Shown here one piece after another: positions 3,025-64,000 of a stretch of 64,000 nucleotides of DNA (the first letter of the stretch is position 1; each line of letters opens with the position of its first letter). The notes beneath the pieces were generated by a model. The model searched no databases and was not told the DNA's origin. It saw nothing but the letters and a program-made list of their open reading frames with translations. The DNA lies in NCBI GenBank assembly GCA_963734495.1, contig CAVTHK010000003.1:288001-352000 (forward strand). Reading direction: 5' to 3'. This stretch comes from an uncultured Spirochaetota bacterium (GTDB taxonomy: Bacteria > Spirochaetota > Spirochaetia > SZUA-6 > CAVTHK01). A program made the position numbers and the translations under genes.

Positions 3025-4726
3025 GCCACGTCTCGTAGAGCTTCTGGATGTCGGGGTTGAGGTGGCTCTTGCGCAGCGTCTTGCCCTCGTCCTCGCGGTA
3101 GATCGCAGCGATGCGGGCCTTGCGCACCTCATCGGTGGTAAAGCGCGGCTGGCCGCCGCCGCCGATGCAGCCGCCGGGGCAGGTCATCACTTCGACAAAG
3201 TGGTACTGGCCGGCGCCGCTCTTGATCCTCTCCATCAGGATCCGGGCGTTTCCCAGGCCGTGGGCGACCGCGGTCCGCAGCTCGACCCCTTCGAGGAAGC
3301 GCCAGTCGGGAAGCGTCCCTTCGAGCCTGATCGCCGCCTCCTTGACCCCCTGCAGCCCCTCGAGCGGCGTGACGTGGAGGCCGCCGACCGGGATCTCGCG
3401 GCCGGTCACCAGCTCGTACGCGGTGCGCAGCGCCGCCTCCATGACTCCGCCGGTATTGGCAAAGATGTCGGCCGCGCCGGTGGAGAGGCCGAGCGGGGCG
3501 TCCATCTGGTCGTCGGGGAGCGAGACGAAATCGATGCCGGCCCCGTCGATCATCTGGGCGAGCTCGCGCGTCGTGAGCACGTAGTCGACGTCCTGCTGGC
3601 CGCTTGCGTTCATCTCGGGCCGCTGCGCCTCGAACTTCTTGGCCGTGCACGGCATGACCGAGACCACGACGATGTCCTCGGCCCGCCTGCCGATCTGCTC
3701 GGCGTAGAAGGTCTTGGCCAGGGCGCCGAACATCTGCTGCGGGCTCTTGCAGGTCGAGAGGTTCGGCAGGTACTCCGGGTAGAAGTGCTCGGTGTACTTG
3801 ATCCAGCCCGGCGAGCAGCTCGTGAACTGGGGGAGAGCCACCGGGCGCTTCTCGACGAGGGCTTTCTTGAGCCTCATCAGGAGCTCGGTGCCCTCCTCGA
3901 CGATCGTGAGGTCGGCCGTGAAGTTGGTGTCGAAGACCTTGGCGAAGCCGAGCCGCCGCAGGGCGGAGACCATCTTGCCGGTGACCAGCGTGCCGGGCGG
4001 GAGCCCGAAGCACTCCCCGAGGGCGGCGCGGATGGCGGGCGCGGTCTGCACGATGACCACCTTCTTCGGGTCCTCCAGGGCGCGGAAGACGCCGTCGGCG
4101 TGGCTGGACTCCACGATCGCGCCGACGGGGCAGACCGCCGCGCACTGCCCGCACTGCACGCAGGCGACGTCGGCGAGGTTCGCCGCAAAGGCGGGCGCCA
4201 CCTGGGTGCGGTAGCCGCGGTACTGCGGGAAGAGGGCGCCCACGCCCTGCACGTCGTTGCACGCGGTCACGCACCGGCGGCACTTGATGCACTTGCCGGA
4301 GTCGCGGGAAAGAGCCGGCGTGCTGCGGTCGAGCCGCACCGCGGCCTTCTCGCCCGTGTAGCGGATGTCGCGAATCCCGAGCTGGTGGGCGAGCGCCTTG
4401 AGCTCGCAGTCCTCGCTCCGGTCGCAGGTCTGGCAGTCGCCTTCGTGCTCCGACAGCAGCAGCTCGACCACCGTGCGGCGCGCGTTGCGGACGCGGCCCG
4501 TGTTGGTGCGCACCTTCATGCCGTCGGAGGCGGGGGTGGCGCAGGCGGCCGAGAGGGTCTTGGCCCCCTCGACCTCCACGACGCACACGCGGCAGGCTCC
4601 GAGGGGCGCGCGCCCCTCGAGGTGGCAGAGGGTGGGGATGTGGACCCCGGCATCCGTGGCAGCCTGGAGGATGGTCGCGCCGGGGGCGACTTTCGTTTCT
4701 CTGTCGTTGATCGTGACGCTAATCAT
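2954..4726 (-). CDS. hydA: [FeFe]-hydrogenase catalytic subunit (group A3, HydA/HndD type)
   Basis: N-terminal 2Fe-2S, His-ligated 4Fe-4S and 2x4Fe-4S motifs; H-cluster motifs FTSCSPGW, MPCTAKKFE and EVMTCPGGCIGGGGQP; C-terminal HLLHTHY. Confidence 0.96.
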   Translation of the reverse strand: MISVTINDRETKVAPGATILQAATDAGVHIPTLCHLEGRAPLGACRVCVVEVEGAKTLSAACATPASDGMKVRTNTGRVRNARRTVVELLLSEHEGDCQTCDRSEDCELKALAHQLGIRDIRYTGEKAAVRLDRSTPALSRDSGKCIKCRRCVTACNDVQGVGALFPQYRGYRTQVAPAFAANLADVACVQCGQCAAVCPVGAIVESSHADGVFRALEDPKKVVIVQTAPAIRAALGECFGLPPGTLVTGKMVSALRRLGFAKVFDTNFTADLTIVEEGTELLMRLKKALVEKRPVALPQFTSCSPGWIKYTEHFYPEYLPNLSTCKSPQQMFGALAKTFYAEQIGRRAEDIVVVSVMPCTAKKFEAQRPEMNASGQQDVDYVLTTRELAQMIDGAGIDFVSLPDDQMDAPLGLSTGAADIFANTGGVMEAALRTAYELVTGREIPVGGLHVTPLEGLQGVKEAAIRLEGTLPDWRFLEGVELRTAVAHGLGNARILMERIKSGAGQYHFVEVMTCPGGCIGGGGQPRFTTDEVRKARIAAIYREDEGKTLRKSHLNPDIQKLYETWLKEPLGERSHHLLHTHYAARSRL

Positions 4727-59925: not shown

Positions 59926-61499
59926 CTACTTGCGCAGGTAGGCGAGCTTCGCGGGAAGCGGCAGGTTGTTCCCGAAGTCGTCTTCGCCGTAGCCGCTTTC
60001 GGCCAGCAGCTTGATGTCCTCGAGCACCCTGCGGTCCCCGTAGAAGGACACCGTCACGTCCATCTCCATGTCGATCTTGCCGATCGCCAGAAGCTGGGTG
60101 AGGGCCCGCGTCACGAACTCCGGCCGCGTCTCGTCCTCGCGCATCGAGACGTCCTCGAGCGTGAGGTTCCGCTCGTAGAGCACGATCTTGTTGCGCGTGA
60201 ACATCTCGTGCGCGACCTCGCGGACGAAAGCGGCCGGGTCCTCGTCCGGGCTGTCGTTCAGGTTGCAGCGGTAGACCTCGAGAGCGAGGAGCCTGCGCTT
60301 GACCGCGCTGATCTTCTCGTTGGCGCGGAACAGGTCGAGGGTGAACCCCGCGTTGTAGGTCTCCTTTTCCAGCTTCATCGCCACGTCGCTGCCGTAGTGG
60401 GCGACGATCTTGGCGACCATCGTCGAAGGCCGCACGTGGAAGCCCCGGTAGCGCGGCACCGGCACGGTGACGTGCCCCTGGATGGCGTAGCGGCGCAGCA
60501 TCTCGTGGCAGAGGCCGCGGGTCGTGAGCATGTAGCGGCTGGCGAACGCGAGGGAGTAGCTCATCAGCACGCCGAGGACCTCGGTGGGGTCGACGATCGG
60601 TCCGTCGGCCGCGGCGCCCGGGCCCGGGCTCTGCGGGTCGCCGCCAGGGCCCCTGCGCGACGCGAAGCTCAGGATGTGGCGCTCGCAGTAGTGGGCGAGG
60701 GCCGTCGCGGTCTCGAGCAGGTGATAGATGACCGAGACGTGGCCCCGCAGCACCGGGAGGTCGGCGTCGAGGCTCTCGACGTTGGTCTCGGAGATGTGGG
60801 TGTCGTACAGGGACTGCAGGTTGTGGAACCGCTGCTCGAGATCGCGCAGGCGCGCTTCGTTGATCGGTTCGGGGATCCAGTCCGCGTAGTGGTCCGGTTT
60901 CTCCTGCTGCGTGACGTGGATGAACTTGCCGTCCTCGGCGAGGTTCAGAAAGGCGGTGGCGACGCGCGTCGACGGTCTCCTCGGGCGAGGCGGCTTTCTC
61001 GCTGGTGCGGTCGGCCGGGAGATGACCCCGCGCGAGCGTCTCGACGTAGGCGTCCCCGGGGCCGCCCTCCTCGCGCAGCGTCAGGCCGAGGCCGCCGGCC
61101 GCGGCGATGAGCGCCTCGAGGCTGCGCCGCAGGATGCCGCAGACGACCTCGAGGGCCTGCGGTCGTGGCCGCCGGGAAGTCCCGCTCCACCGGCAGCAGC
61201 CGGTAGGCGGGCAGGAACAGCAGGATGTGCTGGAGCTGGTAGGCCACGCCCGAGAACAGCTTGATCGTCGCGGTCAGACGGCGCAGCGGGTACCAGCGCC
61301 TGTTGCGGCCCGCGCCGTACACGTCGAGGATCTCTTCGAGCTCGCTGGCGGCGCCCAGCATCCCGTGGAGCAGGGGGCGCGTGAAGCAGGCCGCCCCGCT
61401 CGTCGCTGCCGCACACCGCGGCGGCGCTGGCCGAGAAGCTCGCCGGTGCAGCCCCCGACCACCGCTCAGAAGACGTTCCTCGGGCAGGAGGGAATCCAT
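59926..61499 (-). CDS. Large protein with a C-terminal interrupted HPr-like domain (frameshifted)
   Basis: VTVPVPRYRGFHVRPSTMVAKIVAHYGSDVAM carries the HPr His15 motif, after about 330 aa of helical N-terminal domain. Confidence 0.75.
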
Positions 61500-61595
61500 G
61501 TTCGTCCGGGTCCAAGAGTAGCCGCGCCGGTGCGTTTCGGCAAGACGCACGGGGCCTGTGAGCGACGCCGGGGCGCACGGCCTACCGCGCCCGGC

Positions 61596-62639
61596 TCAGC
61601 CGATCCGACGGCCTTCCGCTCCCGGTCGGAGACGAAGCTCGCGTCGAGGTAGCGCTGCACCTTGAGGCCGTTGGCAAAGTCGCTCTCGTCGTCGCGGCGC
61701 GTCGCGGATCGCCTTGACGAAGCGCTGGTAGTTCGAAGGCGTGGGCTCGGCCTCGATGGTCTCCCACTCCCGGGCGGCGATCGTGTAGAGGTAGCAGGCG
61801 GTCTGGGAGCGGTCGAAGTCGACCTCGATCGTCCCCTTGTCGCCGTAGACCCTGATGAACTCGCGGTTGACGTATGCCGGAGCCCACCGCGTCGAGTGGA
61901 TGGTCCCGATCACGCCGGAGGCGAAGGTCACCGTCGCGACCATGCTGTCGTTCGCGTCGAGGACGTACTCGCCGATGCGGTTCCCGGGCACGCCCTTGTC
62001 GTAGGTCTCGAGCCGGCAGTACAGCTCGGCGATGTCGCCGCAGAGGAAGGCGGCCATGTCGTAGATGTGGCAGCCCAGGTCGCCGAGCACGCCCTGGCTG
62101 CCGTGGCGGGTGGAGAGGCGCCAGGTCAGGCGCGGGTTGTTCCGCCAGTCGCCCCAGTCGGATGCGGCGAGCCAGCTCTGCAGGTAGCTCGCCTCCATGT
62201 GCCGGATCGCGCCGATGCGCCCGAGCCGGATCAGGTCGCGCGCCTTCTGCAGGCCCGACGCGTTGCGCTTGGAGTAGTTGACCATCGCCGACGACGCCCG
62301 CCTTCTGCCAGGCCGCGACCATGCGCTCCGCGTCGGCGAGCGTCGAGGCCATGGGCTTCTCGCAGAGCACGGGCACGCCTGCGGCGAGCGCCTCGATCGC
62401 GGCCTCGGCGTGGGCCCTGTCGGGCGTGACGATGGACACGCCGTCGAGCTTCTCCTTTGCCAGCATCTCCCGGTAGTCGGCGTAGCGGCGCGGGATCTTC
62501 GTGCGCGTCGCAGAACGCGGACAGGTTCTCCGGCGGAGATGTCGCTGCCCGCGACCACGCTCACGCCCTTCATCTCCTGATAGGCCTTGACGTGGGTCTT
62601 CGCCATGGATCCGGTGCCGATGATGCCGAGCTTGAGCAC
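61596..62639 (-). CDS. Gfo/Idh/MocA oxidoreductase (frameshifted; end approximate)
   Basis: LKLGIIGTGSMA, VSIVTPDRAH, VLCEKPMA and GVLGDLGCHIYD. Confidence 0.9.
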   Translation of the reverse strand: MLKLGIIGTGSMAKTHVKAYQEMKGVSVVAGSDISAGEPVRVLRRARRSRAATPTTGRCWQRRSSTACPSSRPTGPTPRPRSRRSPQACPCSARSPWPRRSPTRSAWSRPGRRRASSAMVNYSKRNASGLQKARDLIRLGRIGAIRHMEASYLQSWLAASDWGDWRNNPRLTWRLSTRHGSQGVLGDLGCHIYDMAAFLCGDIAELYCRLETYDKGVPGNRIGEYVLDANDSMVATVTFASGVIGTIHSTRWAPAYVNREFIRVYGDKGTIEVDFDRSQTACYLYTIAAREWETIEAEPTPSNYQRFVKAIRDAPRRRERLCQRPQGAALPRRELRLRPGAEGRRIG

Positions 62640-62655
62640 GCTCCCTCCCGCGAGG

Positions 62656-62977
62656 CTAGGAGCCGCAGCAGCCGCCCTGCGGAGCGGAGTTGCCGCAGGC
62701 GCGCAGGAACCGCAGTCCGGCTGCCGCGCAGCCAGCTCCCGACCACGGCCGCCGCGCAGCCGACGCCCGCCTGCACGCTGATGGCGCCGGCGCTGCAGTT
62801 GCGCGCGCAGGCGCCGCACTCGATGCAGGCGTCGCGGTCCACGATGGCGACGCGCTTCGCTGCGCGCGCGAGCACCGCGCGCGGACAGACCTCGAGGCAG
62901 CGCAGGCAGCCGGTGCAGCGCTCCTCGTCCAGGGCGAGGGTCACGACGTTGCGCAGGTACCTCACGGCCGCGCTCAC
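62656..62977 (-). CDS. hgcB: Mercury methylation ferredoxin HgcB (tail frameshifted)
   Basis: RYLRNVVTL, CTGCLRCLEVCP, CIECGACARNC, GVGCAAA; terminal GGCCGS-stop in a shifted frame; GTGA overlap with hgcA. Confidence 0.93.
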
Positions 62978-64000
62978 AGGCTCACCCCCCAGGTGCGGAT
63001 CTTCTGCGCGATCACGAGCGCCGCAACGGCGAGCGCGGCCGCCGCGTACAGCGGCACCGCGACTCTCAGCTCGCGTTGAACGCCGGAGATATTGGTGAAG
63101 GTGGATGCGCCCGTAAAGGCGAGCGCGAGCGCCGAGGCGACCGCCGGCACGAGGACGAGCGCCGTCGCGGCGGCGAGGCGCGGTCTCGCGCAGCGCCGGC
63201 AGCGCGAGGAGCGCCGCGGCCGCGACCGCCAGGCCGACGAGGGCGCCCTTGACCGCGAAGGCGCGTCCCGGAACCAGCGGCAGCAGCAGCGGCGTGAGGA
63301 ACGAGCCGGACACGACGGCGAGCGCGCCGAGCAGCGGCCAGGGGCCAGCCCGTCACGAGCGCGCGCGCGAAGAGGATCCCCTGCGGCGCGAGCCCGAAGA
63401 CAACGAGGACGCCGAGGACGAAGAGGAGCAGCCTGGGCAGCGCCGGGACCAGCTCCATCGGGATCAGGGCCAGCCGGTCGGACGAGCGCGAAGCGCACCT
63501 CGCGCACCGACGCGGGAACGCGGCCGCCCGCGTCGAGCGCCTCGGGCAGGTCCGCCGCGCGCACCGGGCCGTAGCTCACGCGGAAGCCGGTGCCCGGCCT
63601 CCACCACGTGCGCGCTCACGCCGGGCGCGCCGAGCTGCGGCAGGATCACGCGGCGGTGGTCGACGAGGCCTTCGAGGCCGCGCCTCCCGGATGCGCGCTA
63701 TGAGCTCCGCGGTGCCGAACGTGCCCTTCCCCGCGGCGCACCAGACGTTGATGCCCTTCGTGTCGAGCACGAGGATCCACGCGTCCCGCCCGGCCAGCGA
63801 GCGTCCGCAGGTGGTCGAAGCTCAGCTTGTAGTTGGCGGTGACGAGCACCGGCGAATCGCGTCCCGCCGCGCCCAGGCGATAGAGGCCGGGCGCCACGGC
63901 GTAGCGCATCCGGAACCGGTTGCTCAGGCGGCAGAGAAGCCGGCCGCGCGTGTCTCCGGGCCGACCACTGGCTGTCGGCCTCGCGGACGCTGCTGCGGCC
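62974..64000 (-). CDS. hgcA: Mercury methylation corrinoid protein HgcA (5' end outside the window; frameshifted)
   Basis: PGLYRLG...SPVLVTANYKLSFD, cap helix LDTKGINVWCAAGKGTFGT, ILPQLGAPG, YGPVRAADLP; C-terminal transmembrane helices and FTGASTFTNISGVQRE. Confidence 0.95.

Follow-up and report, generated by a model that had tools for sequence, protein, structure and literature searches.

An hgcA-hgcB pair interrupted by single-base insertions in the assembly of an uncultured spirochaete

The DNA analysed here, called the window, is a stretch of 64,000 nucleotides (G000:C3:288001-352000), where G000 is the assembly studied and G001 that of a congener. To judge from its sequence, the end of the window carries a true hgcA-hgcB pair on the minus strand, the genes of mercury methylation. 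As assembled, the pair contains eight alignable reading-frame breaks, seven in hgcA and one in hgcB, each of which adds one base. We have considerable confidence that these breaks are errors of the assembly and not real changes in the genome. The features of the locus are as follows.

62974..64000, continuing past the window end, minus strand: hgcA, corrinoid-binding and transmembrane domains (NF040863 pieces and frameshift-aware alignment)
63726..63749, minus strand: cap-helix motif NVWCAAGK with the cobalt-ligating Cys encoded by TGC, on the high-stringency list of PMC10087281
62977..63460, minus strand: five hydrophobic segments of HgcA (hydropathy scan, prediction only)
~63958, 63804-63801, 63680-63677, 63595-63592, 63483-63480, 63335-63332 and 63181-63178, minus strand: +1 breaks in hgcA (frameshift-aware alignment)
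62656..62977, minus strand: hgcB, a 2x[4Fe-4S] ferredoxin (NF040864, 115.4 bits, cut-off 99)
~62701, minus strand: net +1 break in hgcB, separating the Cys-Cys tail from the ferredoxin core (best HgcB path)
61596..62639, minus strand: Gfo/Idh/MocA oxidoreductase (Pfam PF22725/PF02894), with about four frame changes
59926..61500, minus strand: putative HPr-domain protein, same direction and downstream, with five +1 breaks

Identification of the hgcA-hgcB pair

Six pieces of hgcA match the NCBIfam HgcA profile (NF040863) in gene order, with E-values of 8e-19 to 1e-5, at profile positions 12-61, 61-102, 101-128, 130-166, 214-255 and 265-323. These matches, together with that of HgcB, far exceed what chance would produce. 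The initial annotation, made from the letters alone, had described an NVWCAAGK cap helix with its Cys intact, a transmembrane C-terminus and an overlapping HgcB with two CxxCxxCxxxC motifs, CIECGAC and a terminal Cys pair, and all of these were found in place. The cap-helix motif lies at 63749-63726 on the minus strand and agrees with the high-stringency HgcA rule N[V/I]WC[A/S][A/G/S]GK (PMC10087281). Five membrane helices are predicted by the hydropathy scan at residues 167-185, 208-226, 235-253, 258-276 and 296-314 of the read-through protein; together with the pieces matching profile positions 214-255 and 265-323, they lead us to predict that the C-terminal membrane domain is present.

The two genes overlap in the tetranucleotide GTGA, the hgcA stop TGA occupying 62976-62974 and the hgcB start GTG beginning at 62977. 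Within HgcB, a CxxCxxCxxxCP motif is encoded at 62917-62882, CIECGAC...C, which fits the HgcB motif C(M/I)ECGA, from 62827 and, in frame, an extra conserved Cys (GVGC, equivalent to Cys73) from 62767. The Cys-Cys tail follows at 62676-62659, ahead of a TAG stop at 62658-62656, in a frame differing from that of the ferredoxin core. We rejected another reading of the tail with two -1 shifts, which would restore P-x-C-G, as the profile alignment preferred a single +1 shift or none at all the penalties tried.

A read-through version of HgcA was built by placing an X at the breaks, giving 322 aa. Its 322 codons contain zero stops, and its identity to the nearest intact HgcA (L007) is 57.9%. For comparison, 92 canonical full-length relatives were kept out of 105 collected, leaving out fused, partial and motif-variant rows. 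On an HMM built from these 92 relatives the read-through scored 432 bits, while the relatives, themselves included in the model, scored at least 385. It retains 82 of the 84 columns conserved in at least 90% of the relatives, whose own median is 82.

Two trees were calculated, a careful one on 29 of 65 rows and a quick one on all 65. In the careful tree the protein nests in a 22-row HgcA clade (92/100) that is separate from the 5 fused HgcAB and 2 CdhE rows, with L012 as its weakly supported sister (84/74). The quick tree is concordant and groups it with HgcA (SH-aLRT 100). In both trees its amino-acid composition was flagged as unusual. The initial annotation had considered a grouping with CdhE/AcsC-like paralogues, which was not seen, and had proposed a frameshift-aware profile check; the profile searches recovered the HgcA pieces in order and HgcB over its cut-off.

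CdhE/AcsC (PDB 4djd, 2h9a; NF003195) is a distant homologue in the corrinoid domain (L007 against 4djd, E 1.8e-9); it lacks the cap-helix Cys and the membrane domain and forms a long separate branch in the tree. Profile scores and trees rule out this identity. PF03599 had no match in G000, but since it also misses the hgcA pieces its silence is weak evidence on CdhD/E, and a PDB search with the cap-helix piece returned chance-level matches only (best E 0.15). The fused HgcAB-like proteins (NF043039) share a homologous corrinoid domain and give weaker matches on the same pieces. They occupy one reading frame, whereas hgcA and hgcB are separate here; the stop/start overlap at 62977-62974, the higher score of every piece on NF040863 and the separation in the tree rule out a fused protein.

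The 5' end of hgcA is irregular. The likely start is an ATG at 64021, 21 bases past the window end and behind a purine-rich stretch resembling a ribosome-binding site, and its frame meets an in-frame TGA at codon 3, preceded by an Ala codon. A Ser-Cys-Cys motif like that of many relatives is encoded at 64011-64003, one frame over. At least one further fault lies in the first 30 bases, where the frame is uncertain; to account for the 5' end one must assume either a start other than ATG or at least two further faults, of which one may be other than +1. In contrast to HgcA of the CU type, this N-terminus carries no CU selenocysteine extension and is probably Cys-Cys. We also observed a perfect inverted repeat of 9 bp around a 4-base loop (L001:4002-4019, corresponding to 64002-64019 of the extended window), which starts 2 bases after the UGA; such repeats are common in DNA of 70% GC.

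Origin of the reading-frame breaks

Frameshift-aware alignment to a profile built from 8 close relatives placed six of the hgcA breaks, and the break near 63958 was added by a second alignment, to 20 N-termini. According to the initial annotation, standard ORF calling fragments hgcA and would miss it. This holds only in part. Full-length scoring does miss hgcA, the best piece as assembled reaching 69-73 bits against an NF040863 cut-off of 275, but a 64-aa ORF keeps the exact high-stringency motif, and hgcB is called and passes its cut-off.

Single-base insertions are found throughout the assembly. Using 284 G001 frames as queries, 134 of which passed the orthologue filter, we detected frame changes in G000 for 37 orthologues, including gyrA- and gyrB-like genes (names read from translations). 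Over 76 alignments (192,187 columns, 400 kb of G001), G000 differed by 139 net +1 against 12 net -1 indels. A codon HMM run on the whole of G000, which caught only 4 of the 7 breaks in hgcA, counted at least 1085 +1 and 500 -1 shifts, with a patchy distribution: the +1 events are overdispersed (mean 1.03 and variance 2.5 in 5-kb windows), and clusters as dense as that of hgcA also occur in pnp-, guaB- and glycogen-phosphorylase-like genes (names again read from translations). Most of the extra bases genome-wide (87 of 125) are not copies of a neighbouring base, which sets the pattern apart from the classic homopolymer error.

The genes around the pair are broken to a similar degree. The flanking genes contain 15 events in about 3.3 kb (4.6/kb) and hgcAB 8 in 1.33 kb (6.0/kb), a comparison in which the patch limits were set after viewing the data and two methods were mixed, so that its p-value of 0.5 is descriptive only. 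The pfkB gene and the HPr-like gene (519 aa) are intact in G001 and broken in G000. In addition, at three of the predicted breaks, 63801 (X3), 63484 (X2) and 63179 (X3), contigs of near relatives are one base shorter, where X2 is a wetland run and X3 a sediment run from two studies. These bridging contigs extend at least 31 bases on each side of the break; they come from relatives (88-94% identical, depth 2-4) and cover 3 of the 8 breaks. A further contig at 63801 reaches too little beyond the break on one side to be counted, and a contig from a peat run has a single gap whose position is not shown.

The principal alternative is a young pseudogene, in which at least some of the breaks are genuine and the strain is on the way to losing hgcAB, a loss that its congener may have completed. 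Neither gene is present at this site in G001, which is 99% complete, and loss does happen in the genus. The break density of hgcA falls in the top 1%, since only 21 of 3484 windows of 1.5 kb reach its 4 HMM-detected +1 events, and the irregular 5' end would also fit decay. Moreover, none of the sequencing runs searched for the G000 strain contains it (word share 0.05-0.07), and no RNA run is listed as containing it. Nevertheless we consider it improbable: the 322 codons are free of nonsense, the loss of conserved residues is within the norm of the relatives, and the +1 sense of all eight breaks has a chance of 0.004 under symmetric decay and of 0.05-0.5 under the assembly's own ratios. The likewise broken state in G000 of neighbours intact in G001, and the open frames of near relatives at 3 breaks, argue in the same direction.

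Much less probable still is that the cassette stems from another organism and was joined in by the assembler, the spirochaete not being its carrier. Contig C3 is indeed chimeric, with a low-GC block and a second rpoB, and the congener has no hgcAB at the site; however, the low-GC block ends 300 kb away, and the sequence on either side of hgcAB aligns in the same order with a single G001 contig, at 76-82% identity. The GC3 is 0.946 in both hgcA and hgcB and equals that of host genes. A contig of the sediment run (X3, record 18) spans the hgcB-gfo junction (62584-62891), the hgcA-pfkB junction being bridged by none of the listed pieces, and the nearest HgcA comes from the same order, with the weak sister support given above. 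As to the block itself, it occupies about 50 kb at the start of C3 (G000:C3:1-50000, outside the window), has a GC content of 0.41-0.45, a tRNA cluster of its own and, in 7 pieces, a second rpoB, and its sequence looks Bacteroidota-like; on C16 the host has an intact rpoB of 1171 aa.

Finally, the breaks could be real and read through by recoding, either programmed frameshifting or selenocysteine at the codon-3 UGA. Many HgcA proteins are described as selenoproteins with an N-terminal CU motif (10.1101/2022.07.06.499078), and six relatives in our set (L088, L089, L097, L109, L114 and L139) carry CU. A selenoprotein HgcA with a CU extension at codon 3 was rejected here: the UGA follows Ala and not Cys, with Ser-Cys-Cys one frame over, and in the 83%-complete G000 selA was not over its cut-off and tRNA-Sec was absent among 55 tRNAs. 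Recoding would further demand eight sites within 1.3 kb, and the three of them that were checked are missing in near relatives; we know of no precedent for this and give the explanation practically no credence. We therefore retain assembly error as the most likely origin of the breaks.

Genomic context and host

Upstream of hgcA, where the initial annotation had suggested looking for the gene start and any arsR-like gene, the likely ATG is adjoined by a divergent pfkB, and no ars genes stand beside hgcAB; the acr3 of G000 is on C11. Downstream, on the same strand, the Gfo oxidoreductase starts 17 bases after the hgcB stop, which suggests that hgcAB and Gfo share one transcript. A scan of 61300-64400 for promoter and terminator consensus sequences gave 0 sites of either kind. 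The protein at 59926-61500 has a feature match of 0.94 to a cluster named 'putative HPr domain-containing protein', which is a lead only, and gave no hit in either Pfam or NCBIfam.

In G001, about 130 bases separate the divergently oriented pfkB and Gfo genes, and hgcAB is absent from this gap, which is the site that the pair fills in G000. The G001 Gfo oxidoreductase (L023:3003-3515, G001:C88) lacks about 600 middle bases, window 61829-62429 having no counterpart, and is either a true deletion pseudogene or a misassembly. Behind pfkB, just past the window (L001:5100-8800), lies a molybdopterin-enzyme cluster, its large subunit identified by Pfam and its medium and small subunits by reading of ORFs. 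The syntenic contig of G001 lacks this cluster too, so that two gains or losses, hgcAB being the other, lie within 1 kb of each other.

We compared this arrangement with 95 other hgcA loci, with flanks of 1.5-3 kb. Among them acr3 was found in 13, arsR in 17 and gfo in 0, and the combination of a divergent pfkB upstream and Gfo downstream in none (0/95). Ten other pfkB loci of the same order (L173, L175-L183; flanks of about 1.5 kb) had neither gfo, the HPr-like gene nor hgcA beside pfkB and thus provide no outgroup; two genomes from the family do not suffice to distinguish gain from loss at the site. As hgcAB stands without an arsenic regulator, between a divergent pfkB promoter region and the Gfo and HPr-domain genes, one may speculate that methylation is switched by carbon supply and not by arsenic, and that it was gained or lost within one genus at this single site; we regard this proposal as doubtful.

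Three FlaA matches over cut-off in G000 identify the host as a spirochaete. An [FeFe]-hydrogenase large-subunit gene passes the Pfam cut-off at 3155-4063 of the window (G000:C3:291155-292063), and dsrA and COX1 were not found in G000 (83% complete) or G001. This combination fits fermentation without proving it, and the host is probably fermentative. On these grounds the description in the initial annotation of a probable fermentative spirochaete that is a potential mercury methylator is fair. The metK gene is intact in G000. While cobS was not found in G000, 6 B12-binding domains and 2 periplasmic binding proteins (a class including BtuF) were over their cut-offs, from which we infer that the host probably scavenges its cobalamin. 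A merB search gave no match anywhere, controls included, and therefore carries no information.

Proposed mechanism and relation to known systems

If the breaks are assembly errors, the living cell probably makes intact HgcAB, which would methylate mercury as the known enzyme does, and the host probably expresses the pair. The known HgcA has a five-helix membrane anchor and binds cobalamin through the cap-helix Cys (PMC11588087, PMC7305189). The enzyme needs Cys93 of HgcA, Cys73 of HgcB and one or more of the tail Cys residues, the tail being the proposed carrier of Hg (PMC7305189). The equivalents of Cys93 and Cys73 and the tail Cys are all present here. Taking the steps from the Pseudodesulfovibrio enzyme, HgcA would be anchored in the membrane by its five helices with cobalamin bound through the cap-helix Cys, the two [4Fe-4S] clusters of HgcB would reduce the cobalt, SAM would methylate the reduced cobalt, and the methyl group would pass to Hg(II), which the Cys-Cys tail of HgcB is proposed to deliver. 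Dechlorination of halomethanes by HgcAB is reported in a 2026 preprint (10.64898/2026.04.26.720869) and could be a benefit to a fermenter.

With the system of ND132 (Pseudodesulfovibrio mercurii; NF040863/NF040864) the pair shares the cap-helix Cys, five predicted helices and a separate overlapping hgcB whose product has two CxxCxxCxxxC motifs, the Cys73 equivalent and the terminal Cys pair. It differs in the 8 one-base breaks of the assembly, in its host, an uncultured spirochaete, and in the lack of the arsR that stands in front of hgcA in ND132 (10.1101/2022.10.17.512643). Closest are the same-order HgcA proteins L007, L016, L012 and L006 (genomes G059, G040, G044 and G006) together with L061, which are 53-58% identical over the full length, fall in the same part of the tree and have hgcB directly behind. 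In 3 of these 5 (L007, L016 and L012) acr3 is directly upstream, accompanied by arsR in L007 and L012, whereas pfkB and Gfo are found here instead.

Spirochaetes are named as hgcAB carriers in PMC10087281, PMC7536318 and PMC7438021, on evidence that is genomic in the portions of these papers available to us. PMC7438021 suggests fermentation for the spirochaete carriers and describes a patchy distribution shaped by transfer, and a linkage of hgcAB to ArsR/ars, including in Spirochaetes, is described in 10.1101/2022.10.17.512643. Of 61 genomes searched within the order, 30 score above the HgcA cut-off; G000 is not one of these. Thus spirochaete hgcAB is already published and common in this order, and the pair described here, though genuine, is ordinary; its lineage may already be listed in a reference database. 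Near relatives appeared as short contigs in runs from peat, wetland and sediment. Our literature search on hgcA with frameshift and Nanopore found no report.

In family f2 we also observed a clade of second HgcA-like copies whose cap helix is eroding (L163-L169, in genomes G052, G049, G055, G002, G046, G028 and G058, respectively). L168 and L169 keep the Cys and have lost the GK, L163 has a motif altered around the Cys, and L164-L167 have Ser in place of the Cys. Within the 2.8-3.2 kb fetched, none of the 7 has a C(M/I/L)ECG ferredoxin beside it, and in 6 of the 7 genomes a canonical-scoring hgcA is present as well. The clade is sister to L015 in both trees. L163 and L168 are still over the NF040863 cut-off (311 and 379 bits) and could therefore give false methylator calls.

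Assembly insertion errors can push hgcA under full-length annotation cut-offs, and inventories consequently need frameshift-aware or motif-based searches; other findings of a 'split gene' or 'frameshift' in G000 deserve the same suspicion. For the biology of the group, the pair adds one more spirochaete lineage to the potential methylmercury producers. Neither the additional lineage nor the effect of insertion errors will surprise specialists, and the pair would matter more if its carbon-metabolism context truly controls its expression.
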